Positions 1 to 40,047 are shown, numbered from the stretch's first letter. The stretch: 64,000 nucleotides of DNA from Candidatus Komeilibacteria bacterium (GCA_048538275.1 JBLYPW010000001.1:113248-177247); one strand, 5' to 3'. The notes: generated by a model from the sequence alone, not told the origin. A program made the numbers and translations.

Positions 1-44
1 GACCACATCGTAAGTGCATAAAAAATCCAAAAATTTTGAAATTG

Positions 45-215
45 TAAATTGGCGGTGTTTTTTGATTGATGTTCGAACTTTTTTTGAGCAAAATCCGAAC
101 TCCGAATTTTAAAATCCAATCGCTCGGGCGGGCAAAAAGGAAGGGGGTTGGGGGGAAGGAATTTTTGCCCGCCCTCGCTTTCCGATTCCAATTTGTTTCC
201 GCCGCCGAATTTCGT
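45..215. repeat. att-like site: 10-bp core aaattggcgg (46-55) followed by ~160-bp arm A (56-215); inverted copy of 4277-4446
   Basis: The reverse complement of 56-215 matches 4277-4436 almost base for base. The core decamer recurs at 4437-4446 (rc) and 6177-6186. Confidence 0.8.
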
Positions 216-238
216 GCCAACGAAGTTGGCGCGCCACA

Positions 239-1540: not shown

Positions 1541-1550
1541 ATAAAATCTT

Positions 1551-3882: not shown

Positions 3883-3951
3883 TTCTGTTATGTTGTCTTG
3901 ACTGTCTTTTCTTTTAAAAAGCTTTTCTAAAATTATATTTTTTTAAAATTA

Positions 3952-4158
3952 TTATTTTATTAAGTCCTCAATTGAAACGCCCAGCGCTTTGGCAATTTCT
4001 GCCATAGTTTGAACACTCGGCTTATTAACTGTTCCACTTTCGACCTTCATAAGCGTTGTATATTTAATATCCGCTTTCTTGGCTAAATCATCTTGGGTTA
4101 AGCCAAGTTTGACACGCATTTTTTTGATATTTTCACTAATTATTTTTCCACTTGTCAT
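3952..4158 (-). CDS. XRE-family helix-turn-helix transcriptional regulator
   Basis: LGLTQDDLAKKADIKYTTLMKVESG...IAKALGVSIEDL is a typical Cro/C1 HTH; 68 aa. Confidence 0.75.
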   Translation of the reverse strand: MTSGKIISENIKKMRVKLGLTQDDLAKKADIKYTTLMKVESGTVNKPSVQTMAEIAKALGVSIEDLIK

Positions 4159-4276
4159 ATAAATAAAGTTTTGGTAGTATTATAGTATATAAGGTTATTA
4201 CCCTTATTGTTATACTACCAAATAAAATGAAAATAATCAAACAAATTTATTGGCGGCGCATTTCGCAAAGCGAAAT

Positions 4277-4566
4277 ACGAAATTCGGCGGCGGAAACAAA
4301 TTGGAATCGGAAAGCGAGGGCGGGCAAAAATTCCTTCCCCCCAACCCCCTTCCTTTTTGCCCGCCCGAGCGATTGGATTTTAAAATTCGGAGTTCGGATT
4401 TTGCTCAAAAAAAGTTCGAACATCAATCAAAAAACACCGCCAATTTTCACTTTTTGTGAAATCGTAAGAAACAGCCTCGGCGCAAAGCGCCTCGGCATGG
4501 TATTTTTCCGCAATTTTGAAGTCATTTTTGAAATCCAAAACCAAAGTGCGGTCGGCAATACGGAAA
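4277..4566. repeat. internal inverted att-like site: arm A (4277-4436) - core (4437-4446) - arm B (4447-4566)
   Basis: Arm A is the reverse complement of 56-215. Arm B is the reverse complement of 6058-6177 and, on the minus strand, encodes the recombinase C-terminal peptide SNFRIADRTLVLDFKNDFKIAEKYHAEALCAEAVSYDFTKSENW. Confidence 0.8.
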
Positions 4567-4684
4567 TTCGCCGTGCAAAGCACGGGCAAAATGAAATTTT
4601 GCAAACCAATCTTTTTTCTTTCGCTTTCAGCGAAAGGTTGAGCGTATTTTTCTTTGATTGCCCAAAAACTAATTTCAAAACAAT

Positions 4685-6250
4685 ATGGACAACATAAATT
4701 TACAAACCAAAAAGATTTTTCTCTATGCTCGTAAATCCACGGACGAACCCGAAAGGCAGGTTTTGAGCATTGAAGCGCAAATGTTTGAGTTGCGGGAATT
4801 TGCCAAAAAAGAGGGTTTGAATATCGTCCGTGAATTTGTGGAAAGCAAAACCGCCAAAGAACCAGGCAGAGAGATTTTTAATGACATGATCGCAAGCATA
4901 GAGAAAAATGAAGCCGAAGGAATTTTAGCGTGGCACCCTGACCGCCTTGCTCGTAATTCCATAGACGGCGGACGAATAATTTATTTGGTGGATACTGGAA
5001 AAATTACCACGCTAAAATTTCCCACTTTTTGGTTTGATCCGACACCGCAGGGAAAATTTATGTTATCCATTGCTTTTGGGCAATCAAAATATTATGTGGA
5101 TAATCTTTCGGAAAACATAAAGAGGGGTATTCGCCAGAAATTGCGAAATGGAATATGGCCCGCTTGGGCGCCACTTGGCTATATAAACGACAAAAACGCC
5201 CGCTGTATCGCCGTGGATAAAGAAAATGCAAAGTATATCAAGCGGGCATTTGAAATGTACGCGACTGGCGAATACCCCCTCGCTCAAATCCGAAAGATTA
5301 TCAATTCCTTGGGCTTGGTTGGCAAGAAAGGCAAAAAGCTTTCCGTCTCAAATTATCAGTATATGCTCAAGAATAAAATCTATTATGGAATGATTGAATA
5401 TAACGGTGAAATGTATGACGGAAAGCATGAACCGATTATCACAAAGAAACTTTTTGATTCCGTTCAAGAAGTGATGGCGAACAAGAGCAAACCAAAATCG
5501 CCAAAACTCAAACCTTATGTTTTTAGAGGATTTTTCCGTTGTGGAGAGTGCGGTTGTTTCATTACTACCGAAACACAAAAAGGACACAATTATTTGCGTT
5601 GCACCAAACGGAAAAATCCTTGCACACAAAAATATGTCCGCGAGGAAATCATCACTTCTCAAATAAAGGAAGAAATCAAAAAAGTTTCTTTGTCTTCCGC
5701 TTGGGCAAACGCTTCAATCAATTATTTTGAAAATGAAAAAATGAAAATTGCCCAAGCGGAAAGCTCTTTCGCCCAAAAAGCGAGAGATGAGCTTGTGGAA
5801 ATAGAAACAAAGCTTGATCGTTTGCTTGATTTACAACTGGACGGCAATTTGTCGCAAGCGGAATATACCGCTAAAAAGCACAAGCTCATTCTCGCTAAAA
5901 AAGATATGGAAGAAAAAATCACCGCTTTTGGGCGAAAGAGCAATAATCGGTTCGAACTTGCCATTGCCTTTCTAAAAGAAGCCAATCAAGCCGAAAAATA
6001 CGCTCAACAAGAAAATCCCGAAAGGATTCGGGATTTTCTCAAAAAGATTGGTTCGAACTTCCGTATTGCCGACCGCACTTTGGTTTTGGATTTCAAAAAT
6101 GACTTCAAAATTGCGGAAAAATACCATGCCGAGGCGCTTTGCGCCGAGGCTGTTTCTTACGATTTCACAAAAAGTGAAAATTGGCGGAGGAGGCGGGATT
6201 CGAACCCGCGATACCTTGCGGTATGCCTGCACTCCAAGCAGGTGCACTAG
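4685..6250 (+). CDS. large serine recombinase (resolvase/invertase N-domain + recombinase domain + zinc ribbon)
   Basis: N-terminal YARKSTDEPERQVLSIEAQ (catalytic Ser region), recombinase domain, CGECG..C zinc ribbon. The 3' end runs through repeat B into tRNA-Ser antisense. Confidence 0.85.
   Translation: MDNINLQTKKIFLYARKSTDEPERQVLSIEAQMFELREFAKKEGLNIVREFVESKTAKEPGREIFNDMIASIEKNEAEGILAWHPDRLARNSIDGGRIIYLVDTGKITTLKFPTFWFDPTPQGKFMLSIAFGQSKYYVDNLSENIKRGIRQKLRNGIWPAWAPLGYINDKNARCIAVDKENAKYIKRAFEMYATGEYPLAQIRKIINSLGLVGKKGKKLSVSNYQYMLKNKIYYGMIEYNGEMYDGKHEPIITKKLFDSVQEVMANKSKPKSPKLKPYVFRGFFRCGECGCFITTETQKGHNYLRCTKRKNPCTQKYVREEIITSQIKEEIKKVSLSSAWANASINYFENEKMKIAQAESSFAQKARDELVEIETKLDRLLDLQLDGNLSQAEYTAKKHKLILAKKDMEEKITAFGRKSNNRFELAIAFLKEANQAEKYAQQENPERIRDFLKKIGSNFRIADRTLVLDFKNDFKIAEKYHAEALCAEAVSYDFTKSENWRRRRDSNPRYLAVCLHSKQVH
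6058..6186. repeat. arm B plus core aaattggcgg directly abutting the tRNA-Ser 3' end (attR-like)
   Basis: Reverse complement of 4437-4566; the core overlaps the tRNA acceptor 3' strand. Confidence 0.8.
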
Positions 6251-6269
6251 ACCACTATGCGACCCCTCC
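6182..6269 (-). tRNA. tRNA-Ser (anticodon GGA), class II with long variable arm, CCA encoded
   Basis: rc = GGAGGGGTCGCATAGTGGTCTAGTGCACCTGCTTGGAGTGCAGG...GCGGGTTCGAATCCCGCCTCCTCCGCCA. Manual fold gives a 7-bp acceptor stem, anticodon loop TTGGAGT, variable hairpin and T-loop TTCGAAT. Confidence 0.85.
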
Positions 6270-6333: not shown

Positions 6334-7020
6334 TTAATTCTTCGCCAGTACCAGCGCCCAGACTGCTCGGGCGTTGTTTTGTTTGAGTAGTTTAGCTTGT
6401 TCATCAAGCGTGGCGCCGGTGGTAATAACGTCGTCTATTAAAATGATAGTTTGATCGGCTAGGTCAATATTTTTACTAATACTAAAGCTATTAGCGACAT
6501 TGATCAGGCGTTGCTGGCGATTGAGGTTGGCCTGATGATCATTGTATTTTTTACGGTGGAGAATATTTGTTTTGACTGGTATTTTCAGCGCTAAACCAAA
6601 ATGATTTGCCAGTAGCTCAGCTTGGTTAAAGCCGCGTTCATTATAACGTCGGCGATGTAAGGGTGTAGGGATAATCAAACAATTATCTGGCATGTCTATA
6701 TTTTGGTATCGTTGGATTAATAATTGTGCCAGCGGCACGGCCAACTGAGAATGGTATTGGTATTTGAAGGCGTGAATCACTTTATCTAAACCACCATCCA
6801 GATAAGTAGCGCTGACTAGAATTTTGTCCAACGATGTTTGGTTGGCACAGGCAGTGCATAAAATTTGTTGATCTTGAGCTTTATCGCAGAGCGGGCAGAT
6901 AAGGGGGCGTTTTTTAATTTTATACTGACAATCATCACACCAATTGGTATTGTTTTGTCCACAAACAGCGCAAGTAGGCGGAAATAGCCAGTGAATAAGG
7001 TAAGCGAGTGGATTGAACAT
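6334..7020 (-). CDS. comF: ComF-family protein (zinc finger + phosphoribosyltransferase domain)
   Basis: N-terminal CAVCG...CDDC and CPLC..C cysteine pairs; PRTase motif IILIDDVITTGATL. Confidence 0.8.
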   Translation of the reverse strand: MFNPLAYLIHWLFPPTCAVCGQNNTNWCDDCQYKIKKRPLICPLCDKAQDQQILCTACANQTSLDKILVSATYLDGGLDKVIHAFKYQYHSQLAVPLAQLLIQRYQNIDMPDNCLIIPTPLHRRRYNERGFNQAELLANHFGLALKIPVKTNILHRKKYNDHQANLNRQQRLINVANSFSISKNIDLADQTIILIDDVITTGATLDEQAKLLKQNNARAVWALVLAKN

Positions 7021-7093: not shown

Positions 7094-9622
7094 TTAGGTA
7101 ATGGATATTTTGTTTTTTTGTACGCCGATTTTTAAAAGTTTGGCTGCGGTCATTTCTTCACTTAATAATTTATCAGCCAAAGGCGCTTCTACGTATTCTT
7201 GGATGGCGCGACGGATGCCACGTGCTCCCTGATCAGGAGAGAAGCCTTTACGGACAATGAATTCAAAAGTATTTTTGGTAACTTGTGCTTTCAGGTTTTG
7301 TGCATGCAGGCGGGCTAACAACTCTTCTACTTGTAGCTTGGCAATCTTTTGTAAGGCTACTTTATCCAGTGGTTGGAATATAATAACATCATCAATGCGA
7401 TTTAAGAATTCAGGACGAAACTGATCGTGTAGGCTATGCTCAATGCGTCGGCTAAGCTCTCGCCAAGCGGTCGCTTGTTTTTGTTGCTGATCATCATCGC
7501 TGCTAAAACCAAGGGCAGCCTGTTTGTTGAATTCTTCTAAACCAATATTGGAGGTCATTATAATAATAGTGTTTTTAAAATTGATAGTTTTACCGGTGGC
7601 ATCAGTTAACTGGCCGTCTTCTAATACTGGTAATAGTAAATTATAGACATCGGGATGAGCTTTTTCTATTTCATCAAAAAGAACAACGGAGTATGGCTGA
7701 TGTTTGACTGAATCGGTCAAAGTGCCTTGCTCTTTATAGCCAACATAACCGGCTGGCGCGCCAATCAGTTTAGAGATATTAAAGCGTTCGGAAAATTCAG
7801 ACATATCTACGCGAATCAAAGCATCTTCACGACCAAAAAATTGGCGCGCTAGTACTTTGGCGGTTTCGGTTTTACCAACGCCAGATGGCCCTAAGAATAT
7901 AAAAGAGCCAATCGGACGGTGTGGGTTGGACAGACCAGTACGCGAACGGCGTATGCTTTGCGCAATGGCTTTTAAGGCCGGATCTTGCCCGATAATATCT
8001 TTGCGCAGTTCGTCTTCCAAGTGTAGCAGACGTTCTTTTTCTGATAAAGCTAGGTCTTTGACAGGTATGCGAGTCATGCGAGATATTACATCAGCAATAT
8101 CGTGCTTGGTGATGGTGCCTAAACTTTTTTTATTAATCAATTCGCTTTGGTTTTTGAGTTGTTCTAGTTTTTTTAGATATTCGCTTTCTTTTTCTTTGAG
8201 AGCTAAGGCATGACTGAATTCTTCTTGCATGATAGCCTGTTCTTTTTCTTTAATAATTTTATTGAGTTTTTGTTCGTAGTTACGGATGGTTTTGGCACGA
8301 CCATCTTTAGTTGCTTCTACTTTAAGTTTGGAAGCAGCTTCGTCAATCAAATCAATTGCCTTATCTGGTAAATATTTATCTTGCAAATAGCGCATGCTCA
8401 TATCCACGGCGGCTGTTAAAGCCGCGTCATCAATTTTGACATGATGATATTTCTCATAATTTTTGCGCAAGCCACGTAAGATTTCTATAGTTTCGTCGCG
8501 AGTAGATTCAATGACCATGATGGGCTGAAAGCGACGTTCAAAGGCGGCATCACTGGCGATGTATTTTTTATATTCTTCTGGTGTGGTCGCGCCTACGCAA
8601 CGCAGATGACCTCGTGCTAATTCCGGTTTTAGCAAATTAGCAGCGTCAAGCGTGCCACCGGCCGAGCCAGCACCCATGAGGTTATGAATTTCGTCAATAA
8701 AGAGAATAATATTTTTATCTTTTTTAACTTCTTTAATAATTTTCTTGATGCGGTTTTCAAATTCACCCCGATAGATAGTGCCAGCGATAGCCGAACCCAA
8801 GTCTAAACTAAGAATACGTTTGTTCACCAGTACATCTGGTACTTTACCTTCACTAATACGCTTGGCCAGACCTTCAATGATGGCTGTCTTACCAACGCCG
8901 GGGTCACCCAGTAGAATGGGGTTATTTTTAGTGCGACGGGAAAGGATCTGAATAAGGCGTTCAATCTCCCTGTCGCGACCAATGACCGGATCAATTTCGT
9001 CTTGTATTTTTTCATCAGTCAGGTCTATAGCATAAGTGTTGAGAGCAGATTCTTGGTTATTATTGTTACCGGCCATTATTTTTTCTAGTTCATTGGCTGC
9101 AAAATCATTATCGTCATATTCTTCTTCACTATTTGTTTTATTGCCAGATAGGTCAGGGAATTTGGAAGTACTTTTTAGTACAGCTTCTAGATGAGTGCGT
9201 AATTGACTAGGCTGAACATTTTTACTACCTAAAAATTTTAGTAAATTCCCATCTTGACTATCTATTAGACTATAGAGTAAATGTTCGGTACCGATATAGC
9301 GGTGATTGAAACGATAGGCGGTAGTAGCAGCGTTTTCTATAATTTTTTGGGTATTGTTGGTTAGGGTAGGCACGATACCTTCGTCTAATTCTCCTTTATT
9401 ATTGAGTATAGTTAAAATATCCTTGGCTTCTTCACCAGAAAATTTATTTTTAGCCAGAATATCCGCGCCAATAGAGCCTTGTTCTACTGTTATGGCATAG
9501 AGTAAATGAAGCGGCTCAACATTTTTATTGCGTAGACTAATAGCTAATTCTTGTGCTGTTATAAGGATTTTTTTGAAATGAGAAGTGAATTTCTCAAAAG
9601 CGTCATTCAAATCGTTTTCCAT
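7094..9622 (-). CDS. clpC: Clp/Hsp100 ATPase with two AAA+ modules (ClpC-type, short middle domain)
   Basis: Clp_N repeats; Walker A sites GDPGVGKTAI and GPSGVGKTETAK; sensor and R-finger regions; 842 aa. Confidence 0.85.
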   Translation of the reverse strand: MENDLNDAFEKFTSHFKKILITAQELAISLRNKNVEPLHLLYAITVEQGSIGADILAKNKFSGEEAKDILTILNNKGELDEGIVPTLTNNTQKIIENAATTAYRFNHRYIGTEHLLYSLIDSQDGNLLKFLGSKNVQPSQLRTHLEAVLKSTSKFPDLSGNKTNSEEEYDDNDFAANELEKIMAGNNNNQESALNTYAIDLTDEKIQDEIDPVIGRDREIERLIQILSRRTKNNPILLGDPGVGKTAIIEGLAKRISEGKVPDVLVNKRILSLDLGSAIAGTIYRGEFENRIKKIIKEVKKDKNIILFIDEIHNLMGAGSAGGTLDAANLLKPELARGHLRCVGATTPEEYKKYIASDAAFERRFQPIMVIESTRDETIEILRGLRKNYEKYHHVKIDDAALTAAVDMSMRYLQDKYLPDKAIDLIDEAASKLKVEATKDGRAKTIRNYEQKLNKIIKEKEQAIMQEEFSHALALKEKESEYLKKLEQLKNQSELINKKSLGTITKHDIADVISRMTRIPVKDLALSEKERLLHLEDELRKDIIGQDPALKAIAQSIRRSRTGLSNPHRPIGSFIFLGPSGVGKTETAKVLARQFFGREDALIRVDMSEFSERFNISKLIGAPAGYVGYKEQGTLTDSVKHQPYSVVLFDEIEKAHPDVYNLLLPVLEDGQLTDATGKTINFKNTIIIMTSNIGLEEFNKQAALGFSSDDDQQQKQATAWRELSRRIEHSLHDQFRPEFLNRIDDVIIFQPLDKVALQKIAKLQVEELLARLHAQNLKAQVTKNTFEFIVRKGFSPDQGARGIRRAIQEYVEAPLADKLLSEEMTAAKLLKIGVQKNKISIT

Positions 9623-9870: not shown

Positions 9871-11130
9871 ATGTTTAATATCGACTATTGTGAGGATAGA
9901 TTGTATAATAGTTCTATGAATCAACGATATTTTTTTATTTTTGGTAATCATCCGGCTTTGGCAATGGCGGAAATTTTGGCAGTAGCTAGAGCAGATAAGA
10001 TTGACTTGACTATTGATTATAGCAATGACGAATTTGTTATTCTTTCCAGCGATAAAGATATTGGTATAGATTTTTTTGATCAGTTGGGTGGGAGTCAAAA
10101 ATATGGCGAGATCAAGGCAATGGACCATGATGTTGAAACTGATGGTTGGCCGCAGTGGTTACAGCCAAATAGTAAAGAGGAGAGATTTAATTTTGGTATA
10201 TCCCTTTATGGTCAGACAGCAAAAGCAAAACAACAGCCACTTTTCAAGCTTGGCTTAACAGAGAAGAAGCGGTGGCGTCAGGCTGGTTTTAGCGTACGCT
10301 TGGTGCAATCGCGTGAGCCGGCCTTATCCAGCGTGATTGTTAAAAAAGAAAATATTATCACTAAAGGTGCGGAGCTGGTGTGCTTATTGGCAGATGATTT
10401 GTCTTGGCTAGGGCAGACTTTGGCGGTACAAGATTTTGACAATTTTAGCCGACGTGATTATGGGAAGCCAGCACGCGATAGTCATAGTGGCATGTTGCCA
10501 CCTAAGTTGGCACGCATGATGTTAAATGTTAGCAGTGGGGATAAGGACAAAATCTTATTGGATCCTTTTTGTGGATCGGGCACTATTTTATTGGAAGCAA
10601 TGTCATTGGATTGGTATAAAATACAAGGTAGTGATCAGAGTGCCAAGGCAGTGGCTGATACCATTCAAAATACAAATTGGTATAAAGAAGATATTAATTA
10701 TCAAGGAGAATTATCCGTTAGACAATTGACAGTAGAAAATTTAGTAGAGCATTGGTCTGGTGATAGATTGCATACGGTTGTGACTGAGCCTTATTTGGGA
10801 CCGCCGCATACTCGTCCCTTGCCGGAGCAGGTAGCGGCTGATTTGGTAGCAGAGCTTACAGCTTTATATCAGCGGGCATTAGGTTCCTTGGCGCAGATTA
10901 TGCCGGCCGGCGCCGTCTTAGTGATGATAATCCCGGTTTTGTCCGGTCAGCGTAATATGCATTATTTGTCTTTGGCAAAGATTGCCTCATCTGAGCAATG
11001 GCATCTGGCTTGGCCTGGTCAAAGTCAATGGGAGCATTTATCTTCTTGGCAGGGCGAGCGACAGAGTTTTTTGTATAAACGTTCTCATCAGGTAGTGCAA
11101 AGAGAAATTGTGCGCTGGCGGCGTTTATAA
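9871..11130 (+). CDS. putative SAM-dependent RNA methyltransferase (UPF0020/RlmL-Trm11-like)
   Basis: Motif I LDPFCGSGTILLEAM and a later TEPYLGPP (DPPY-like). The true start may be the internal Met (MNQRYFF). Confidence 0.5.
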   Translation: MFNIDYCEDRLYNSSMNQRYFFIFGNHPALAMAEILAVARADKIDLTIDYSNDEFVILSSDKDIGIDFFDQLGGSQKYGEIKAMDHDVETDGWPQWLQPNSKEERFNFGISLYGQTAKAKQQPLFKLGLTEKKRWRQAGFSVRLVQSREPALSSVIVKKENIITKGAELVCLLADDLSWLGQTLAVQDFDNFSRRDYGKPARDSHSGMLPPKLARMMLNVSSGDKDKILLDPFCGSGTILLEAMSLDWYKIQGSDQSAKAVADTIQNTNWYKEDINYQGELSVRQLTVENLVEHWSGDRLHTVVTEPYLGPPHTRPLPEQVAADLVAELTALYQRALGSLAQIMPAGAVLVMIIPVLSGQRNMHYLSLAKIASSEQWHLAWPGQSQWEHLSSWQGERQSFLYKRSHQVVQREIVRWRRL

Positions 11131-11187
11131 AACTATTGTCTCTGAAGATAGTTTTGTGTTATAATTTAAGGGTTAAAACCCTTTTTT

Positions 11188-12264
11188 ATGAATGAATTTA
11201 TCGTTAAAGAATACGCCGTTAAAGATAAACAAGGTAATTTTAAAATTTGGCAAAAAGGCCGCTTGCGTGATTATCATGAATGGTTAACGGAACAAGCTAG
11301 TTTAGCCGCAGCAGAAAATAGCGATAGTCGGGCTATGCTTGATACTGGCATGGAAGAGCCGCGTTTAGCTCCGCCGCCACCTGTTATTATCGCACCCACA
11401 CCGGCGATAAAGAAGTTTAGTCTGGATAAGATTGTAGACAAACTGAATGCTAAGTACCAATGGCAGTGGGACAATGAAGATTTAGCTACTTTTAAAAAAT
11501 TATTGTTTTCTTATTTTCGCGATGTACGAGAAGCTTCTGATTTACGTCAGCTTTTAGAACGTAAATTAGCTGGCTCCGGTGGAGTTCTAGCCAATACAGA
11601 TTTGGATGATTTATTGCATAATATTAAGAAAATCAACGCCCAGATTAAAGCTGCTAAAGGCCAAGTGATAAGTTTGGATAATGAAAGTAAGCGTTTGCAG
11701 TCAGAGCCGAGTGTCCAAGCTAAAATCGCGCAAGCGCAAGCTGAAGCACGTCAGCAAATCGCCCAAGATATGAATCGTGGTCGGGCGCCGATAGAGCAGG
11801 CAGCTAAGCAGACTAATGAGCCGGAATTTGTAGTGCCAGATAAACCGGTTAAAGATCATGGTTGGCATTTGTTTAAAAAACGAGAAGCTACTGTGCCAGC
11901 TGGCAAAGTAGCAATGCAAGAAGTTGCTAGTTTTAGTAAGTTAGTGGGGCCGGTAGATGAATTACGCCAATTATCTTTGTCTGTCTGGCGACGCTTGGGA
12001 CCTGATTCCACTACCATTATTAATAAAATAAAACAGCGTATAGAAAGCTTAGGAGCAGATTCATTGGCAAAGCGTTTGGCGGCTATCAAAGCCTGGCAAG
12101 CGAGCGCAGTATATAAAGAATATGTTGATTTGGGGCGAGCTAGTTTGGAGGAAGGCTTGCCAGTAGATACTATTATACAAAGGCGTCAGAGTGCTGGACA
12201 AGAAACGCTTACGGTACAGGAATTTTCCGCCATTTCTGATCTAAATGGACAATTACGTTTTTAA
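11188..12264 (+). CDS. hypothetical soluble protein, first gene of the T4SS-like cluster
   Basis: 358-aa ORF with no TM segment and no motif I recognise; co-directional and tightly spaced with the downstream genes. Confidence 0.45.
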   Translation: MNEFIVKEYAVKDKQGNFKIWQKGRLRDYHEWLTEQASLAAAENSDSRAMLDTGMEEPRLAPPPPVIIAPTPAIKKFSLDKIVDKLNAKYQWQWDNEDLATFKKLLFSYFRDVREASDLRQLLERKLAGSGGVLANTDLDDLLHNIKKINAQIKAAKGQVISLDNESKRLQSEPSVQAKIAQAQAEARQQIAQDMNRGRAPIEQAAKQTNEPEFVVPDKPVKDHGWHLFKKREATVPAGKVAMQEVASFSKLVGPVDELRQLSLSVWRRLGPDSTTIINKIKQRIESLGADSLAKRLAAIKAWQASAVYKEYVDLGRASLEEGLPVDTIIQRRQSAGQETLTVQEFSAISDLNGQLRF

Positions 12265-12267
12265 GTT

Positions 12268-12723
12268 ATGCAAAAGTTTATTGTTCCCCAATTTATTGAT
12301 GTAGAAAGTAAAATAATCGGGCCTATCACCACTCGTCAATTTGTTATTACTCTAGTGGGCTTATTATTTGGCTTTATTGCTTATAAATTGTCAGATTTTA
12401 CTTTATTTTTTTTGGAGGCAATCATCATATTTGTTATAGTGGCAGCCTTTGCTTTTGTAAAAGTCAACGCCGCTCCTTTTCATGTTTTTTTACTAAATTT
12501 TTTAAAAACTTCTTTTGCTCCCAATTTAAGAGTATGGAAAAGAGAAAAATGGCAAGCGACCGCTAAAAAAGAAGAGGATAAAAAAGAAGATGAGCCAGAG
12601 CATCCGCCGCGTCGTAGATTAACGGCCTCACGCTTATCCGAGCTAGCTTTGATTATAGATACCGGCGGCGCTTATAGTGGTGAGGATATTATCAATTCAC
12701 AAAGTCAAGATAATGAAAAATAA
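12268..12723 (+). CDS. small 2-TM membrane protein (VirB3/PrgI-like position)
   Basis: Two hydrophobic helices. It sits 2 genes upstream of the VirB4 ATPase (13397..15253), with only the 226-aa ORF at 12713-13393 between them. Confidence 0.35.
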   Translation: MQKFIVPQFIDVESKIIGPITTRQFVITLVGLLFGFIAYKLSDFTLFFLEAIIIFVIVAAFAFVKVNAAPFHVFLLNFLKTSFAPNLRVWKREKWQATAKKEEDKKEDEPEHPPRRRLTASRLSELALIIDTGGAYSGEDIINSQSQDNEK

Positions 12724-13393
12724 AAAAGCTAAAAATCAAGGTTTGCCTAGTACGGAAAAATATTTATTTGCGGAAACGGTACGTGACGACACCGTAGTTT
12801 TGAAAAATGGCGGATTGCGAGCAATATTGATGACTTCTTCTATAAACTTTGCTTTGAAAAGCGAAGATGAACAGCAAGGTATTTTGCAAGGGTATGTTTC
12901 TTTGTTGAATTCTATTGATTTTCCTTTGCAGATTGTAGTGCAGTCTCGTCCTTTAAAGATTGATAACTATTTATCAAGCATGGATAAGCGGATGACGGAA
13001 ATTGATAATGAACTTTTACGCGTACAGCTACAGGATTATAAAAAATATATCACTGAGCTTTTAAGTCTAGGTGATATTATGAGTAAAAAGTTTTACTTGG
13101 TTGTGCCCTATGAGCCGGGAGGCGGAGGGGGAAAGAAGAATTTTTGGACACAAGTAACAGAAGTATTTTCTTCTCGTTCCATTATAAATCTTAGTCGCAA
13201 ACAGTTTAATGAATATAAAGATGAATTAGAGCGTCGTGTTAGCTTGGTCATGGCTGGCCTAAATAATATGGGCTTATCATCAGTTCGTTTGGATACGCAA
13301 GGCCTGATTGAATTACTTTATAACAGCTACAATCCATTGATATCCAATTGGCAAAAATTACCAGACATTAATGAGTTGAATTTAGAAAAATAA
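12713..13393 (+). CDS. hypothetical protein, T4SS-associated
   Basis: The ORF track starts at a GTG (12677); an ATG at 12713 (MKNKKAKNQ) is the more plausible start. The size is roughly what the short downstream VirB4 lacks at its N-terminus. That is inference only. Confidence 0.4.
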   Translation: MKNKKAKNQGLPSTEKYLFAETVRDDTVVLKNGGLRAILMTSSINFALKSEDEQQGILQGYVSLLNSIDFPLQIVVQSRPLKIDNYLSSMDKRMTEIDNELLRVQLQDYKKYITELLSLGDIMSKKFYLVVPYEPGGGGGKKNFWTQVTEVFSSRSIINLSRKQFNEYKDELERRVSLVMAGLNNMGLSSVRLDTQGLIELLYNSYNPLISNWQKLPDINELNLEK

Positions 13394-13396
13394 ATT

Positions 13397-15253
13397 ATGC
13401 GTATTCCTAACCAAACTAATAAAATAATGAGTAGTGAGGCGCCGGAAAGTCAATCTCAAGATAAGGAGCTTTTACAGGCAGAAAAAACTTTTCGGGAGGG
13501 CATGACAACGGTGCGAGAATTAGTCGCCCCTTCTAGTATGAAGGTGGATAAAGACAATTTACGATTGGGACAAAAATATGTACGCACAGTTTTTGTTATT
13601 AATTACCCGCGTTATATCAGCTTAGGGTGGTTTACACCGATTATCAATTTGAATGCAGAATTAGACATAGCTATGTATTTTTATCCGGTGGAATCAAAAG
13701 TAGTGCTTAAGCAGTTGAAAAATAAAGTTGGTGCTTTGGAGGCGGAGATAGTAGCAGATTCGGAAAAGGGCGCGCCACGAGATCCGATGAAAGAGACAGC
13801 TTTACGAGATATTGAAAGCTTACGTGATGATTTGACGCAGGGGATTGAGAAATTTTTCCAATTTGCTCTTTATGTCACAATTTATGCCGATAATGTTGAA
13901 GAATTAGATCAATTGAACGATCAAGTAGAGTCTATTATTGGTGCCAAATTAGTAATGTCAAAAAGAGCTTTGTATCAAGCAGAACAGGGTTTTAATTCTA
14001 GTTTGCCTTTGGGTAATGACGAATTGATGATATCCAATAATTTAAACTCCTCACCGGCGGCTGCTTCTTTTCCTTTTATTTCCTCTGATTTAACTTCGGA
14101 TAGCGGCATTCTTTATGGCATCAATCGTCACAATAATAGTTTGATAATTTTTGACAGATTTTCTTTACAAAACGCAAACTCTTGTGTATTTGCAACTTCT
14201 GGCGCGGGCAAAAGCTATGCCGTAAAATTGGAAGCTTTGCGCAGCTTGATGATGGGTACCGATGTTATTATTATTGATCCAGAAAGTGAGTATAAATATT
14301 TGGCCGACGCCGTGGGAGGCACTTATATTAATATTTCTTTAAACTCTGATAGCAAGTTAAATCCTTTTGATTTGCCCCGGGGAGTGGGTGGAGAATCCAA
14401 AGCGGCAGACATTATTCGTAGCGCTATTATCACTATCAAGGGTTTGTTGAAAATCATGCTGGGAGAGTTTACTCATCAGGAAGATTCTTTATTGGATAGA
14501 GCTATTTTAGAAACTTATGCCAAAAAAGATATTGGACCGGATAGTGATTTATCTAATGTGGAGCCGCCGATTTTAAGCGATTTAGAACAAATATTATCTG
14601 GTATGGAGGGTGGTGAAGACTTAGCCCTACGTTTGAAAAAATATACCGAAGGTACTTTTTCTGGTTTGCTCAACAATTTTACTAATGTGGATATGAACAA
14701 TCAGCTAGTTGTCTTTTCGGTGCGAGATTTAGAGGATGAGTTGCGTCCGATTGGGGTTTATACGATTGTAAACTATATCTGGAATATAGTACGTTCGCAA
14801 ATGAAAAAACGTATTTTAGTGATTGATGAAGCGTGGTGGTTGATGCAGCATGAAGACTCCGCCAAGTTTATTTTTGCTTTGGTTAAACGTTGTCGCAAAT
14901 ATTATTTGGGCGTTACTACTATCACTCAAGATGTTAATGATTTTTTGGGCAACAAATATGGTCGCGCCATTGTGACTAATTCGGCTTTACAAATATTATT
15001 AAAACAATCTTCGGCTGCCATTGATAATGTTCAGAAAACATTTATGTTGACGGAGGGGGAAAAATATTTACTTTTGGAGGGTGGCGTTGGTACGGGTATA
15101 TTTTTTGCCGGTAGTAAGCATGCTGCCATCCAAGTAGTGGCATCTTATGCAGAGGATCAAATTATTACTTCCGACCCACGTCAGTTATTAGAAATTGAGG
15201 AGGCAAAAAAGGAATTTGCTGCCGATCAAAAAGCTAAACAAAATAATGCTTAA
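13397..15253 (+). CDS. virB4: VirB4/TrbE/CagE-family type IV secretion ATPase
   Basis: Walker A FATSGAGKSY; Walker B ILVIDEAWW (the DEAW signature); N-terminal LGQKYVRTVFVINYPRYISLGW typical of VirB4. Confidence 0.8.
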   Translation: MRIPNQTNKIMSSEAPESQSQDKELLQAEKTFREGMTTVRELVAPSSMKVDKDNLRLGQKYVRTVFVINYPRYISLGWFTPIINLNAELDIAMYFYPVESKVVLKQLKNKVGALEAEIVADSEKGAPRDPMKETALRDIESLRDDLTQGIEKFFQFALYVTIYADNVEELDQLNDQVESIIGAKLVMSKRALYQAEQGFNSSLPLGNDELMISNNLNSSPAAASFPFISSDLTSDSGILYGINRHNNSLIIFDRFSLQNANSCVFATSGAGKSYAVKLEALRSLMMGTDVIIIDPESEYKYLADAVGGTYINISLNSDSKLNPFDLPRGVGGESKAADIIRSAIITIKGLLKIMLGEFTHQEDSLLDRAILETYAKKDIGPDSDLSNVEPPILSDLEQILSGMEGGEDLALRLKKYTEGTFSGLLNNFTNVDMNNQLVVFSVRDLEDELRPIGVYTIVNYIWNIVRSQMKKRILVIDEAWWLMQHEDSAKFIFALVKRCRKYYLGVTTITQDVNDFLGNKYGRAIVTNSALQILLKQSSAAIDNVQKTFMLTEGEKYLLLEGGVGTGIFFAGSKHAAIQVVASYAEDQIITSDPRQLLEIEEAKKEFAADQKAKQNNA

Positions 15254-15264
15254 TTTATAAATAT

Positions 15265-15834
15265 ATGTATTGGACACGTAGAAAAATGATAATAATAGGA
15301 GCGGTGATTCTTTTGGTCATTATTGTATTGATTGTATTGTGGTTTGTTTTACGTTCCAGCCAACCTAATGATAATGGTTTGAACAATGGTCCTCAAGTGT
15401 ATGACTCTAGTAATGCCGATCAGGTTGTTTTACCCAGTCTGCCCAGCAAGACAGAGGTGTCACCGCTAAGTCAGGGAGCAGCCACTTTAGCGCGTAATTT
15501 TGTTGAACGTTATCTAAGTTTTTCCAATGATGCTTGGGGCTCTAATTTGAGCATTTTGCAAAGCCAGATGTCAGTTGTGATGCAACAGACTAGTGAGCAG
15601 GATCTGCGTAATTGGCAAAACCAATACCCGGCGGGAAGTTTTTATGGGGTTAGCACTAAGGTATTAAGTCAAGAACAGCTTAGCGCGAGTGAAGATTATT
15701 ATTCTGCCCGTTTGACGGTCCAACAAGAAGAGACCGCCGGCAGCGAAGTTAGTATTAGCCGCCATCAGTATGATATTAAAATGCGGCAAGCTCAAGGAGA
15801 ATGGTATGTTAATGATTTAATTAAGGTTGACTAA
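15265..15834 (+). CDS. bitopic membrane protein (N-terminal TM + extracytoplasmic domain; VirB8-like topology)
   Basis: Single N-terminal TM helix followed by a ~150-aa soluble domain. Confidence 0.4.
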   Translation: MYWTRRKMIIIGAVILLVIIVLIVLWFVLRSSQPNDNGLNNGPQVYDSSNADQVVLPSLPSKTEVSPLSQGAATLARNFVERYLSFSNDAWGSNLSILQSQMSVVMQQTSEQDLRNWQNQYPAGSFYGVSTKVLSQEQLSASEDYYSARLTVQQEETAGSEVSISRHQYDIKMRQAQGEWYVNDLIKVD

Positions 15835-16073
15835 TGTCAGAAGATAAGGCAGAGCAATTTAGGGATGAGATGGCTAGTGCCCGGCAGGCTGCTCAGCATC
15901 AATCAGCCACTTCGGCGGCAGTTGATATTGCAAAAGATCAGATCAAGAAGCGCGCCACCCGACAAATATTGATCTGGGTCGGGGGCGTGGTGGCGGCGGT
16001 ATTGCCTTGGGTGTTATTAATATTATTTATCTTAGCTATCATAATAGGCGTGTATAATGAATATATTTCTTAA
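15834..16073 (+). CDS. small tail-anchored membrane protein
   Basis: 79 aa with a C-terminal hydrophobic helix; start codon overlaps the upstream stop. Confidence 0.35.
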   Translation: MSEDKAEQFRDEMASARQAAQHQSATSAAVDIAKDQIKKRATRQILIWVGGVVAAVLPWVLLILFILAIIIGVYNEYIS

Positions 16074-16076
16074 TAT

Positions 16077-17309
16077 ATGATGAACGATCGGACAAAAAAA
16101 ATATTATTTATTGTAGGTTTTGTTATTATTACAATTTTATTAGCTTGGGCTTTGTATAGTTTATTTTTTAGTAGTTCGGTTATTGATAATGTTCCGGTTA
16201 ACAATGCTAATCAGCCGGTTGGCGGTTTGCCTTCTATAAATAATGGTGGGACAAATCGAGTGACGCAGCCAAGTAATAATATTGCTAATCAGAGTGGTTA
16301 TTCGGGTTTGCCATCTACTGGTGTATCTGCTCAGACAGCAAAACCAATAAGCGAGATAACTGACCAACCTGTACAGTCGGTCACAGTTGGTTCACAAGGA
16401 GAGGTGGCTTGGTATGATCAAGGGGATGGCAAGTTTTATAAATTACAAAGTGGTCAGGTACAAAGCATGAGTGATAAAACATTTCCGCAGGCAGAAGCGG
16501 TTAGTTGGTCACCACAGGCTGATAAAGCAATAGTGGAATATCCCGACGGCTATAATATACTTTACGATTTTGTTAAACAAAAACAGATTAGCTTGCCTAA
16601 GGAGATGACTGATTTTACTTTTTCTGGCAGTGGTCAGCAGATTGCTGCTAAGGTAGTTACCGACAATCCTGATAATAATTGGATTGTAACTGCCAATTAT
16701 GACGGTAGCGGATTGCAGTTTATAGAGCATATCGGCGACAAGAGCCGGGATGTACAAATGGATTGGTCGCCAGCTGGCGAGATAATTGCTACTTATCGGG
16801 AGGGCGTGGATTTTGAAAGACAAGAGGTTTATCCCATTGGTCAATCAGGTTCTAATATTAAATCACTGAAAACAGATGGTAGAGGATTTGTCAGTAAGTG
16901 GTCACCGCAAGGTAATTTGATTGTTTATAGCGTGTATAATAGTTTTAGCGGTTATCGGCCGGTATTATACGTGGCGGATATGGGTGGTGATTGGACTGGT
17001 TCTTATTATTTGAATTTAGGATTGCAGAGTTGGCCGGATAAGTGCGTTTTTAATTCTACTAGTCAAAAGTTGTATTGCGCCGTACCTGATGATTTACCTG
17101 AGTTATCCGGTATTTATCCGGAACTGGCCGATGATAGTAGCGATATTTTTTATGAAATTAACTTATCTACTGGCAATAAGCGTATATTACCTCTTGCCAC
17201 TGGTTCGGATAAAGTGCAAGCAACAGATTTGCGTTTGTCTGCTAATGAGGATAAACTATATTTTATTAACAAAGAAACAGGGCGTTTGACGGAAATTAAT
17301 TTGCGTTAG
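16077..17309 (+). CDS. membrane-anchored beta-propeller (PD40/TolB-like repeat) protein
   Basis: N-terminal TM; repeated WSPxGxxI/V motifs (MDWSPAGEIIATY, KWSPQGNLIVYSV, VSWSPQADKAIVEY). Confidence 0.45.
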   Translation: MMNDRTKKILFIVGFVIITILLAWALYSLFFSSSVIDNVPVNNANQPVGGLPSINNGGTNRVTQPSNNIANQSGYSGLPSTGVSAQTAKPISEITDQPVQSVTVGSQGEVAWYDQGDGKFYKLQSGQVQSMSDKTFPQAEAVSWSPQADKAIVEYPDGYNILYDFVKQKQISLPKEMTDFTFSGSGQQIAAKVVTDNPDNNWIVTANYDGSGLQFIEHIGDKSRDVQMDWSPAGEIIATYREGVDFERQEVYPIGQSGSNIKSLKTDGRGFVSKWSPQGNLIVYSVYNSFSGYRPVLYVADMGGDWTGSYYLNLGLQSWPDKCVFNSTSQKLYCAVPDDLPELSGIYPELADDSSDIFYEINLSTGNKRILPLATGSDKVQATDLRLSANEDKLYFINKETGRLTEINLR

Positions 17310-17332
17310 ACGTTGGACCAGGGGACAGCATT

Positions 17333-18496
17333 ATGTTCAAAAAAAATAGAGCAAATAAATTTATCACAGGTGTATTAGCTGGTTTTTTATTGCTGTTTGG
17401 CTTGGTTTGGTTTAGTGCGATTGGGCAAGCCGCTAATGAAGGCATAAAATTTGTACCGCAGACTACTATACCGGGTGTTACCAAAGCTGGCGATACAAAT
17501 TTTACAGTAACGCCGGATACATTAGGAAACTATATTAATGCTATATATCAATACGGCGTGGGTGTTGTTGCAGTCTTAGCGGTGGTAATGATCATGTTGG
17601 GTGGTTTTAAGTGGATATTTTCTGGCGGTAGTGCCGAGCGCATAAGCTCTGCCAAAGGTACTATTACTAATGCAATTGTTGGTTTGATTTTGGTGTTGAC
17701 TTCTTGGTTATTGTTATCCACTATCAATCCGGCCTTAGTTGTTTTCCCTTCTTTACAAGCGCCAAAACCTAATCTTGTAGCCGGCGACTGCCCGATGTTG
17801 TTAAAAGATAATAACTTTGTTCGACAGTGTAGCGATTTTAATAATATAGGAGATTATTTGAAGACGACGGAGAGTGCTAAAACCATTCAAGACTATTGTC
17901 TTGATCAAGACGCGCAAGCGGCCTGCGGATTGCCAAAAAAGCTTTGTTATTGGGATGACGGTGAAAATTTATGCGCCTCCATAGTAGAGAAAGAATGTGC
18001 TACTGCTTCTGATTGCCAATTTAATGATGAAACCTTTATTTGTGAGAAAAAAACTAATCATTGTTCGCTCGGAGTAGAGGGGTCTTATTGTCTGAGGAAT
18101 GACGAATGTACGAGTGAATCCAATTTAATTTGTGCTTTCGGTGAGTGTGTTAAAGACGGAGATCATGGTTTTTTTAATGGAACTTGGAGACCAGAAACAG
18201 AGTGGCAAACAGGAATAGATTGTCCACCCGGTTATGTGGGGGAGACTGATTCAGATTCTCCTGATGGTGGTGGTAATTGTATAAGAAGAGCCCCTCTGTG
18301 TGATATTCAGCAGGATTGTTTTTCTAATTCTGGTGATTATATTGGTTGGACAGATAGCGCTATGACTCTTCTAAAGAATGATTGCGGGACTGAGGGCGAT
18401 GTCAAAAGATGTGATTGCGATTCAGATAAAGGATGTAGCTCAGGGAGATGTATCAATACGCGAAACGGGCAAAATGATGTATGTTATCCAGACTAG
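17333..18496 (+). CDS. T4SS pilin-like N-terminal domain fused to a cysteine-rich extracellular domain
   Basis: Signal/TM segment, then two adjacent hydrophobic helices (GVGVVAVLAVVMIMLGGFKW and AIVGLILVLTSWLLLSTI), then a ~250-aa region with more than 30 Cys. Confidence 0.4.
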   Translation: MFKKNRANKFITGVLAGFLLLFGLVWFSAIGQAANEGIKFVPQTTIPGVTKAGDTNFTVTPDTLGNYINAIYQYGVGVVAVLAVVMIMLGGFKWIFSGGSAERISSAKGTITNAIVGLILVLTSWLLLSTINPALVVFPSLQAPKPNLVAGDCPMLLKDNNFVRQCSDFNNIGDYLKTTESAKTIQDYCLDQDAQAACGLPKKLCYWDDGENLCASIVEKECATASDCQFNDETFICEKKTNHCSLGVEGSYCLRNDECTSESNLICAFGECVKDGDHGFFNGTWRPETEWQTGIDCPPGYVGETDSDSPDGGGNCIRRAPLCDIQQDCFSNSGDYIGWTDSAMTLLKNDCGTEGDVKRCDCDSDKGCSSGRCINTRNGQNDVCYPD

Positions 18497-18759: not shown

Positions 18760-18787
18760 TTGACAACCAGTCAATACAGCTTATAAT
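18760..18787 (+). promoter_or_regulatory. sigma-70-type promoter (TTGACA-16 nt-TATAAT) immediately upstream of radA
   Basis: Perfect -35 TTGACA (18760-18765) and -10 TATAAT (18782-18787). The radA ATG begins 7 nt after the -10 with no Shine-Dalgarno, implying a leaderless mRNA. Confidence 0.4.
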
Positions 18788-18793: not shown

Positions 18794-20128
18794 ATGACTA
18801 ATAAGAATGTAACAATTTTTGCTTGCAGTAAATGTGGCGCCCAGTACCCAAAGTGGACCGGGCGCTGTTTGGAATGCGGCAGTTGGGGTACGGTAACGGA
18901 AGAAAATAGCAGTCCCGCCGGTAAAGTTGAGCAAAAGATAGATAATAAAAGAGCGCAAGCGCCCGTAGCTTTGTCTACTTTAACGAGTGGTGATTTGAGC
19001 AGAATTTCTAGTGGTTTTTCTGAATTAGATCGTGTTTTGGGTGGTGGCTTAATTAGTGGTAGTATGATTTTATTGGGCGGTGATCCCGGCATTGGTAAAT
19101 CCACTTTGGCTTTGCAATTAGCCGGCAATATAAAGGAAGCTTTATATGTGTCTGCTGAAGAGTCCGGTGGTCAGGTTAGTCAGCGATGGCAGCGTTTGGG
19201 AAAGGGAAAAGATATAAAATTTTTAAATAGCAATAACTTGGAGGATATTATCGCCACTATCAGTAAAGAAAAGCCATCATTGGTGGTGATAGATTCAATT
19301 CAAACGATTTATTCTGAGGTGGTTAGCGGTGAGGCGGGTAATATCAGTCAGGTGCGGGCTTGTACCGTTCAGCTATTAAGTTTCGCTAAGCAGCTGGATA
19401 TAACAATTGTTATTATTGGTCACGTCACCAAAGAAGGAGTGATGGCTGGCCCCAAGACTTTGGAGCATTTGGTGGACACGGTATTATATTTGGAAGGTGA
19501 TAAGTATCAACAGTATCGTTTATTGCGGGCAGTTAAGAACCGTTTTGGGCAGACCGGTGAAGTGGCTTTATGGGAAATGGCGGCTAAAGGTTTACAGCAA
19601 ATTACCAATCCCTCTGCTTTATTATGGTCGGATAAAAAAGTAGCCGGCGCAGTTGGCACGGCCATGGTAGAGGGTAGTCGGGTATTATTGGTGGAAGTTC
19701 AGGCCTTGGTAAATAAAACCAGTTTTGGTTATCCTCGGCGGTTGGCTTCCGGTTTTTCTAATCAGCGACTAGAGGTTATATTAGCGGTATTGGCTAAAAA
19801 GTTAAAATTACCTTTGTCCAATTATGATGTTTATATAAATATTGCCGGTGGCCTACAATTACGTGAGCCGGCACTTGATTTGGCGGTAGCAGCAGCAATT
19901 ATGTCGGCTTATTATGATAAGCCTTTTCCGTCCAGCAGTATTATATTTGGCGAAATTGGCTTGTCCGGTGAATTACGAGCAGTGGTAAAGACTAAGTCGC
20001 GTGTTAAAGAAGCTTTACGGTTGGGAGTGGAGCGGGTTTATTTACCTACCTTACCTAAAGAGGTGAGGGCCAATAAACAACTTATGAGTTTGGCGGATTT
20101 GTCAGCCGTGGTAAAGCTTTTTAAGTAA
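18794..20128 (+). CDS. radA: DNA repair protein RadA/Sms
   Basis: N-terminal C4 zinc finger CSKCG...CLECGSW; RecA-like Walker A GDPGIGKST; Lon-protease-like C-terminal domain. Confidence 0.9.
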   Translation: MTNKNVTIFACSKCGAQYPKWTGRCLECGSWGTVTEENSSPAGKVEQKIDNKRAQAPVALSTLTSGDLSRISSGFSELDRVLGGGLISGSMILLGGDPGIGKSTLALQLAGNIKEALYVSAEESGGQVSQRWQRLGKGKDIKFLNSNNLEDIIATISKEKPSLVVIDSIQTIYSEVVSGEAGNISQVRACTVQLLSFAKQLDITIVIIGHVTKEGVMAGPKTLEHLVDTVLYLEGDKYQQYRLLRAVKNRFGQTGEVALWEMAAKGLQQITNPSALLWSDKKVAGAVGTAMVEGSRVLLVEVQALVNKTSFGYPRRLASGFSNQRLEVILAVLAKKLKLPLSNYDVYINIAGGLQLREPALDLAVAAAIMSAYYDKPFPSSSIIFGEIGLSGELRAVVKTKSRVKEALRLGVERVYLPTLPKEVRANKQLMSLADLSAVVKLFK

Positions 20129-33808: not shown

Positions 33809-33883
33809 TCCGCGGTAGCTCAGCGGTAGAGCAGTTGACTGTTAATCAATTGGTCGTCGGTTCGAATCCGACCCGCGGAGCCA
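33809..33883 (+). tRNA. tRNA-Asn (anticodon GUU), CCA encoded
   Basis: TCCGCGG acceptor pairing with CCGCGGA; anticodon stem GTTGA/TCAAT with loop CTGTTAA; T-loop TTCGAAT. Confidence 0.85.
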
Positions 33884-37359: not shown

Positions 37360-37361
37360 AA

Positions 37362-37604: not shown

Positions 37605-37609
37605 ATTAT

Positions 37610-39616: not shown

Positions 39617-39622
39617 TCTTTT

Positions 39623-40042: not shown

Positions 40043-40047
40043 TGCTT

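Follow-up and report, generated by a model that had tools for sequence, protein, structure and literature searches.

We analysed a 64,000-nucleotide stretch of DNA from Candidatus Komeilibacteria bacterium (GCA_048538275.1 JBLYPW010000001.1:113248-177247), hereafter the window, in which an earlier reading of the sequence (the original prediction) had placed a compact gene cluster around a VirB4-family ATPase. The cluster, which comprises eight tightly packed, co-directional open reading frames (ORFs) designated g0 to g7, is very probably a chromosomal, non-conjugative type IV secretion system (T4SS) of the Patescibacteria clade, derived from the monoderm conjugation machinery of mating-pair formation type FATA (MPF-FATA) and in the version carried by the ABY1-class relatives of Komeilibacteria. 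As T4SSs of this clade were described between 2023 and 2025, the observation is correct but not new.

The VirB4 motor and its conserved partners

At the heart of the cluster, g3 matched the VirB4-like CD1110 family model NF045971 with an E value of 5e-111 and 372 bits, above the curated cut-off of 325, and the Pfam families P-loop_TraG, AAA_10 and CagE_TrbE_VirB were all above cut-off on the same protein; a weak match to CedB was also seen (E 2.9e-14). Both the Walker A motif (ATSGAGKS, residues 266-273) and the Walker B motif (ILVIDEAW, residues 473-480, with DEAW at 477-480) are intact. The assignment of this DEAW-bearing ATPase to the VirB4 family was thereby upheld, and the profile searches did not place it in a non-T4SS family. 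The upstream gene g1, proposed to encode a VirB3/PrgI-like protein with two transmembrane (TM) segments, matched Pfam PrgI (PF12666) above the cut-off of 27 (37.5 bits, E 3.6e-9), its TM segments starting at approximately residues 20 and 42 and being followed by a charged cytoplasmic tail.

The g3 protein covers positions 178-730 of 752 in the CD1110 profile and 274-893 of 894 in the VirB4_plasma profile; the first 175 to 270 or so profile positions of a full-length VirB4 are missing from it. The g2 protein, in turn, matched VirB4_plasma at positions 88-228 (E 2.6e-10), CD1110 at positions 26-103, and the TrsD/TraD family NF041427 with an E value of 8.5e-7. As expected of a fragment, it scored below the cut-off of all three full-length profiles, and its 29 bits against NF041427, far under the family cut-off of 200, mark it as a remote relative of TrsD rather than a member of that family. 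Given that g2 and g3 span complementary, non-overlapping parts of full-length VirB4, the idea that the 226-aa protein corresponds to a detached N-terminal domain proved right, and the VirB4 motor, judging from these profile matches, is encoded in two pieces, i.e., a TrsD-like N-terminal protein and a 618-aa ATPase. The start of g2 was taken as the ATG at 12713 and not as the GTG at 12677 given by the mechanical ORF list, since its orthologues are 224-229 aa long.

Related loci were sought by scanning one genome per species, and the best 80 of 543 confirmed loci were analysed by ORF calling and hidden Markov model (HMM) searches. Of these 80, 37 had 4 kb or more of sequence upstream and 6 kb or more downstream and are referred to below as well flanked. 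In all 37 of these, g4 lies directly 3' of virB4. The original prediction had recognized g4 as a bitopic protein of VirB8 topology, and a single N-terminal TM segment was indeed found; its soluble domain, however, returned nothing in sequence-profile searches of Pfam, NCBIfam and the PDB. A search with the single sequence retrieved only five proteins, and a usable alignment was reached only through a profile of 73 orthologues taken from the loci; it held 121 sequences, including 120 database homologues collected with the 73-member family. The resulting AlphaFold2 model (mean predicted local distance difference test score, pLDDT, of 85.2) comprises a TM helix at residues 5-30, a disordered linker at 35-60 and an NTF2-like domain at 67-188, in which three helices pack on a four-stranded curved sheet.

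By Foldseek, the best PDB matches of the g4 model were VirB8 homologues, headed by CagV (6iqt; E 6e-5, target-normalised TM-score 0.72) and including the Rickettsia VirB8-like proteins 4o3v and 7sh3, PrgL of pCF10 (7aed), TcpC of pCW3 (3ub1), the R388 VirB8 chain 8rtd_Y, the IcmL-like protein 5cnl and TraM of R64 (3wz3). Other NTF2-fold proteins score similarly, so the assignment of g4 constitutes fold-level evidence. The predicted fold, together with the bitopic topology and the constant position after virB4, supports a VirB8-like role for g4.

The first gene of the operon, g0, encodes a cytoplasmic protein that lacks TM segments. It heads the operon in every well-flanked relative (37/37), and its most conserved part is the C-terminal stretch of approximately 120 aa, which always lies at the end of the protein and closes with the motif DLNxxLRF. 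The g0 family is large, with 2038 cluster representatives (clusters at 50% identity) at E<=1e-3, and no Pfam match was obtained among 61 of its members. In PDB sequence-profile searches, the family, like that of g2, yielded no match beyond TM or linker regions or chance, and such empty searches indicate that sequence alone is insufficient to assign either g4 or g0.

The genes of the original prediction were all found where it had placed them, on the + strand. It had counted eight co-directional genes within 12268-18496; the number and the orientation stood, although only seven ORFs lie inside that interval and the eighth, g0, lies just upstream. The g0 ORF ends 3 nt before the PrgI gene; since it belongs to the conserved cluster, the true start of the system is at about 11136, where a promoter-like site was found, or at 11188. 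From g0 to g7 the intergenic spacings are, in order, 3, -11, 3, 11, -1, 3 and 23 nt, and the GC content across the cluster (0.37-0.41) is no different from that of the flanks. The earlier reading had likewise missed the previous description of the system and the precedent that pGO1-type plasmids offer for a split VirB4.

Table 1. Features of the window, with positions counted from its first nucleotide
Feature	Position	Strand	Basis or remark
Whole operon, g0-g7	11188-18496	+	8 tightly packed co-directional ORFs
Promoter-like site, TTGTCT-18 nt-TATAAT with TG	11136-11165	+	consensus scan only; putative operon start, upstream of g0
g0, cytoplasmic protein, 358 aa, no TM	11188-12264	+	first gene of conserved cluster
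g1, PrgI/VirB3-like, 151 aa	12268-12723	+	Pfam PrgI PF12666
g2, TrsD-like, 226 aa, soluble	12713-13393	+	putative detached N-terminal segment of VirB4
g3, VirB4 ATPase, 618 aa	13397-15253	+	NF045971, VirB4-like CD1110 family
g4, VirB8-like bitopic protein, 189 aa	15265-15834	+	predicted fold, topology, position
g5, tail-anchored membrane protein, 79 aa	15834-16073	+	TM prediction
g6, membrane-anchored extracytoplasmic PD40-type beta-propeller, 410 aa	16077-17309	+	orthologue PD40 matches
g7, VirB2-like pilin fused to Cys-rich domain, 387 aa	17333-18496	+	PF18895
comF-like gene, double zinc ribbon and phosphoribosyltransferase	6334-7020	-	Pfam DZR_2, Pribosyltran
ClpC/ClpB-like ATPase	7094-9622		by-eye reading of translation
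RNA/DNA methyltransferase	9871-11130		
Consensus sigma-70 promoter, TTGACA-16 nt-TATAAT	18760-18787		7 nt before radA start; scan score 12/12
radA, DNA repair/recombination	18794-20128	+	TIGR00416, E 6e-151
recG, 693 aa	20782-22863	-	label by eye from translation; fits ABY1 context (PMC12102498)
Histidyl-tRNA synthetase paralogues, two in tandem	239-1540, 1551-2867		
6-TM protein, no family	2854-3882		
Second large serine recombinase	4685-6250		overlaps tRNA-Ser(gga), 6182-6269
tRNA-Asn	33809-33883		abutted by prophage integrase
Large serine integrase	33842-35431		phrog_95, E 5e-74
Rolling-circle Rep	35754-36530		prophage
Zot/pI-like morphogenesis ATPase	36691-37359		prophage
N6/N4 DNA methylase	42635-44404		
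ResIII helicase/restriction subunit	44416-46629		
AAA_15 (OLD/AbiEii-like) ATPase	46608-48389		
DUF2130 protein	48386-49645		

Inheritance of the cluster and its likeness to known systems

An NCBI protein encoded on a 487-kb contig of a Candidatus Komeilibacteria metagenome-assembled genome has the same sequence as g3 (100% identity). The g3 protein gave more than 8000 database matches, the best of those listed being 74-86% identical, and the named entries among its 120 best matches are Patescibacteria, most entries carrying no name. Its place within the Patescibacteria clade was judged by this proxy of similarity. Across the 80 species representatives VirB4 is 71-85% identical, as opposed to at most 36% for any of 72,556 plasmids. 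The lineages named among the 80 loci are Patescibacteria of the Komeilibacteria, Falkowbacteria, Kerfeldbacteria or BM507 type, which we take to belong to the GTDB class ABY1. Many records with a 72-78% identical VirB4, in many cases together with the complete locus, bear the title "uncultured Gammaproteobacteria bacterium" or just "bacterium", with one "Planctomycetota" and one "Nanoarchaeota"; these labels appear to be placeholders or wrong taxonomy.

The order and strand of g0-g1-g2-g3-g4 are the same almost everywhere. That the flanking genes are co-conserved with the ATPase is evident from the well-flanked loci, all 37 of which contain the four VirB4 partners g0, g1, g2 and g4; across the 80 loci, g1 was detected in 75 and g2, with a mean column identity of 58%, in 79. 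The downstream part occurs in two layouts. In the short one, the VirB8-like gene is followed by a gene for a DsbA-like thioredoxin protein or by comF, and then by radA. In the long one, to which the window conforms, it is followed by genes for small membrane proteins, by one or two for pilin fusions (400-590 aa) and by the propeller gene. Among the well-flanked loci, the propeller was found in 12 and a pilin domain in 11. Constant synteny, high identity across species and low identity to plasmid proteins together indicate an old, vertically inherited chromosomal system rather than a recent mobile element, and the presence of housekeeping genes on both sides of the cluster supports chromosomal, vertical inheritance.

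The cluster closely resembles published Patescibacteria systems, which a 2025 review treats as newcomers to the T4SS superfamily (PMC12857230). Wang et al. (2023) reported an unusual, Gram-positive-like T4SS with pilins and with neither coupling protein nor relaxase in Southlakia epibionticum (PMC10633639), whose T4SS genes are essential for epibiotic growth (PMC10633639; PMC12857230). In the survey by Quinonero-Coronel et al. (2025; PMC12102498), 2417 of 3035 genomes had VirB4, and these proteins grouped as one monophyletic clade within MPF-FATA. The partner met most often was TrsD, which is remotely homologous to the N-terminus of VirB4 and usually adjoined virB4; PrgI/VirB3 homologues and VirB2-like pilins (PF18895) were also recorded, with almost no relaxases. 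Homologues of VirB8 were detectable nearly exclusively in ABY1, whose loci adjoin comF, recG and radA (PMC12102498). The window has in common with the clade at large a chromosomal VirB4, a separate TrsD-like gene beside it, PrgI/VirB3, a PF18895 pilin and the lack of a relaxase, and with its ABY1 members a VirB8 homologue and the comF/recG/radA neighbourhood. In contrast, the saccharibacterial locus (SEML1_0006-0019) encodes VirB6, peptidoglycan hydrolases and six short pilins, none of which is present in this operon; instead, the operon contains a single pilin with a 24-cysteine domain, a PD40 propeller, the tail-anchored peptide and g0. A term search of the survey's main text brought up neither the PD40 propeller nor a DsbA-like gene nor pilins fused to Cys-rich domains, and no g0-like family is described in the sections consulted (PMC12102498).

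A precedent for the split VirB4 is provided by TrsD and TrsE of pGO1 (PMC12102498). The TrsC-TrsD-TrsE set of pGO1/pSK41, an MPF-FATA subclass, resembles the window in having a small TrsD, a shorter ATPase and a VirB3-like membrane protein before them; pGO1, however, is a conjugative plasmid with a relaxase, oriT and a coupling protein, and lacks a VirB2-like pilin. Outside the candidate phyla radiation (CPR), the best matches were found at two loci on Bacillota megaplasmids, L081 and L082, with 32% identity for g2 and 36% for g3. The same triad of PrgI, TrsD-like protein and short VirB4 occurs there in the same order (Pontibacillus NZ_CP062975, 352-361 kb; C. perfringens pJFP838A, 48-52 kb), and the Pontibacillus locus (L081) also carries Mbov_0395-type pilin-like genes. 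Most Bacillota megaplasmid records with the triad are typed as non-mobilizable. In contrast to the window, these loci lack homologues of g0 and the PD40 propeller and give no VirB8-like match with the ABY1 profile; they carry very large M23 peptidoglycan peptidases. Uncharacterised as yet, they seem to be relatives of the system outside the CPR.

In lacking a coupling protein, a relaxase and VirB11 around a VirB4 ATPase, the cluster also recalls Helicobacter pylori ComB and archaeal Ced. ComB, however, is a diderm system with VirB6-10 homologues, and Ced uses CedA/CedB and type IV pili. The likeness is one of parts lists, with no orthology beyond VirB4. Against this background, the small additions of our analysis are the support that the predicted fold of g4 lends to VirB8, and g0 as an uncharacterised family.

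Surface genes, neighbours and other elements of the window

Downstream of g4 lie three genes whose products had been described as a tail-anchored peptide, a TolB/PD40-like beta-propeller and a pilin-like/Cys-rich fusion; all three descriptions held, and the propeller and the pilin fusion make up the surface components. The 79-aa g5 protein is predicted to have a cytoplasmic N-terminus and a single C-terminal TM segment at approximately residues 43-70. It matched the Mbov_0395 pilin-like family weakly (E 0.007) and over its TM part only, and recognisable homologues were present in only five related loci (e.g., L048, 12583-13353). The g6 protein consists of an N-terminal TM segment, a low-complexity linker rich in Gly, Pro and Asn, and a propeller with a conserved Cys323/Cys334 pair. 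Its PD40 type is based on its orthologues, 12 of 16 of which matched PF07676 (best E 9.7e-7), and WSPxG motifs recur along the family alignment; the window protein itself is below the Pfam threshold, with only weak WD40/THOC3 hints, and a PDB sequence-profile search with the family gave only TM/linker or chance matches. Proteins were counted as propellers only if they were at least 300 aa long, as the iterated g6 profile also matched short variants of g4. We treated the latter matches as drift, probably through the TM and linker region.

The g7 protein is a large fusion and not a short pilin. After a signal-like TM segment, residues 62-131 form the pilin domain (PF18895; E 1.3e-11, 44.8 bits, cut-off 26.6), which also matched the NCBIfam Mbov_0395 pilin-like family (E 1.4e-7). 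The extracellular C-terminal domain of approximately 250 aa follows, and all 24 cysteines are located downstream of the pilin domain, within residues 153-384. By sequence, this Cys-rich domain was recognisable in only two Komeilibacteria loci (L001 and L002), while other relatives encode different Cys-rich pilin fusions of 400-590 aa.

A gene for a membrane-anchored DsbA-like thioredoxin (Pfam Thioredoxin_4/DSBA) was found within the T4SS cluster or immediately behind it in 37 of the 80 loci and in 24 of the 37 well-flanked ones (e.g., L003 8383-9189, L012 16202-16930 and L048 18188-18901); loci of the long layout have it between the propeller gene and that of a second Cys-rich pilin fusion. 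Despite the 24 cysteines of g7, no DsbA-like gene was found in the window. In several long loci the C-terminus of the second pilin fusion resembles, by eye, a lytic transglycosylase (TKESSG...GLGQIT in L012, 16905-18263). Such a protein would be a VirB2-VirB1 fusion; this is unconfirmed, as Pfam returned only the pilin domain at E<=0.01.

The genes next to the operon are listed in Table 1. A gap of 297 nt separates g7 from radA. In the vicinity of virB4 in the well-flanked loci, radA was found in 25 of 37, homologues of the recG ORF (by phmmer or HMM) in 22 and comF-like genes in 13.

Elsewhere in the window, the region 33809-42402 is likely to be an integrated inovirus-like (filamentous) prophage, in which the GC content drops to 28-34%. 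Besides the genes in Table 1, it contains an 80-aa protein with two TM segments, several small ORFs and a protein of 556 aa, signal-like at its N-terminus and with a TM segment at the C-terminal end, which may be pIII-like. Pili are the usual receptors of filamentous phages. The putative prophage is followed directly by a run of genes resembling a defence island (42635-49645), and a low-GC stretch at the other end of the window (1-6269; 32-34%) may be another integrated element.

Conjugation, uptake or export

The original prediction had found no VirD4, VirB11 or relaxase in the window and proposed a non-conjugative apparatus. We scanned 40 window ORFs for the missing families, i.e., the eight cluster genes and nearly all ORFs of at least 140 aa, those left out all being shorter than 230 aa. 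No significant match to T4SS-DNA_transf, TraG-D_C or TrwB was obtained among the 40, a sub-threshold T4SS-DNA_transf match (E 0.047) falling on the VirB4 P-loop of g3. Neither VirB11 nor relaxase families were matched, the only HUH-type protein being the Rep of the inovirus-like prophage. The absences therefore stand. With no coupling protein, relaxase or VirB11 alongside it, the cluster is not a conjugation module, as has also been concluded for this system in the literature (PMC12102498; PMC10633639). As for the channel, no protein in 11188-18496 has more than three predicted TM segments, as a polytopic VirB6/PrgH-like protein would, and no TrbL/VirB6 Pfam match was found in the window. A protein of approximately 425 aa with 6-7 TM segments, encoded upstream of g0 in about ten relatives and absent from the window, was considered as a VirB6 candidate and rejected by eye, since it resembles a permease with a riboflavin-kinase-like C-terminus. 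The operon likewise encodes no VirB1-like peptidoglycan hydrolase, the sole M23 peptidase domain of the window lying approximately 42 kb away (60321-61862).

Some of these points, and others, weigh against our interpretation. Lacking a VirB6-like channel and a VirB1-like hydrolase in the operon, the machine is incomplete by canonical standards, although both may be encoded in another part of the genome or have escaped detection through sequence divergence. A type IV coupling protein (T4CP) could be encoded outside the window, VirD4 homologues being far from virB4 in many Patescibacteria (PMC12102498). As regards import, the strong promoter that radA possesses suggests that it is transcribed independently of the T4SS operon, and its adjacency may be positional; in Saccharibacteria, moreover, deletion of comEC abolishes competence but not viability, whereas the T4SS is still essential (PMC12857230). 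Alternatively, the cluster might belong to an integrated conjugative element or a plasmid transfer system, of which it would be either a relic or a working portion, with its T4CP and relaxase outside the window or lost. In favour of this, the proteins VirB4, PrgI and TrsD have homologues in Gram-positive conjugation, T4CP genes often lie far from virB4 (PMC12102498), and the window contains two serine recombinases and other mobile DNA. The recombinases, however, are in separate low-GC islands beside tRNA genes, 5 kb and 15 kb away, while the cluster shows no GC shift. Gene order and housekeeping neighbours (radA, recG) are the same in dozens of species, in marked contrast to the low identity of any plasmid VirB4, and in the published tree such VirB4s are monophyletic and vertical, with relaxases in only 103 of 3035 genomes (PMC12102498). 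On synteny, identity and GC content we rejected an integrated conjugative element, and we consider this reading highly improbable.

Solved T4SS structures suggest, by analogy, how this non-conjugative system could work: PrgI and the TrsD-like piece would dock or tether a VirB4 hexamer at the membrane, and VirB8-like subunits would form a scaffold on its periplasmic (extracytoplasmic) side. Fuelled by ATP hydrolysis, VirB4 would then assemble pilin into a surface filament or conduit in contact with the host bacterium of the epibiont. The Cys-rich domain would decorate or tip this structure, and the propeller would be its partner at the surface. A 2026 preprint describes tubular structures, maybe T4SS pili, at a parasite-host interface (bioRxiv 10.64898/2026.06.21.733656). 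A 2024 perspective article calls the role of these systems "completely unknown" and names effector delivery and nucleotide acquisition as possibilities (PMC11665869). Our preferred guess, which falls somewhat short of probable, is the uptake of host macromolecules, most plausibly nucleic acid, because the parts that couple substrates to export are missing and the comF/radA/recG neighbourhood is recurrent. Effector export ranks next, as a possible but less probable function.

In a stricter form of the uptake idea, the cluster would be a dedicated competence T4SS akin to ComB and Ced that hands imported single-stranded DNA over to the ComF, RadA and RecG proteins encoded beside it. The absence of a coupling protein, VirB11 and relaxase from the window, as in ComB and Ced, would fit, as would the weak CedB match of g3 and the counts of radA, recG and comF near virB4, an association also reported for ABY1 (PMC12102498); T4SS-mediated nucleotide acquisition is raised in the PNAS perspective cited above (PMC11665869). 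Nevertheless, competence in Saccharibacteria requires type IV pili and ComEC (PMC12857230), and neither ComEC nor DprA was seen beside the cluster or in the window. Besides radA having its own promoter, recG is on the opposite strand, and the adjacency is missing in a third or more of the relatives. We consider this form unlikely. To a similar degree we doubt that the cluster is a translocator of protein effectors, or a contact-dependent device for attacking the host, with the Cys-rich pilin fusion and the propeller as adhesin or tip. Wang et al. proposed that the saccharibacterial T4SS "may instead export proteins" (PMC10633639), effector delivery is among the speculations of the field (PMC11665869), and effector systems without a T4CP are known, for example Ptl and Brucella VirB (PMC12102498; PMC12857230); furthermore, the large, variable, disulfide-rich domains fused to the pilins look like host-recognition modules. 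However, no candidate effector or immunity genes were found in or beside the operon, either in the window or in relatives, and a secreted substrate is known for no Patescibacteria T4SS.

Going beyond the uptake guess, we can picture the ABY1 T4SS as an inward-running, pilus-tipped feeding conduit, a distinctly improbable model, in which the Cys-rich pilin and propeller would form the tip that recognises the host, g0, which resembles no known family in sequence or fold, would replace the missing coupling protein as cytoplasmic gate or adaptor, and ComF, RadA and RecG would receive the host nucleic acid. If true, the T4SS would be an essential nutritional organ and not a gene-transfer device. 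Irrespective of this model, g0 represents a widespread, unannotated family and a good target for interaction modelling or genetics. The locus adds no new principle, and nothing in it would surprise a specialist; it provides fold-level support for a VirB8 component mostly missed by sequence searches, and shows a compact ABY1 version of the system with an invariant five-gene core of g0, PrgI, TrsD-like protein, VirB4 and VirB8-like protein. The Patescibacteria radiation is estimated to account for approximately a quarter of bacterial diversity (PMC7427843), and the T4SS to which this core belongs is near-universal within it and required for epibiotic growth by the only species tested.

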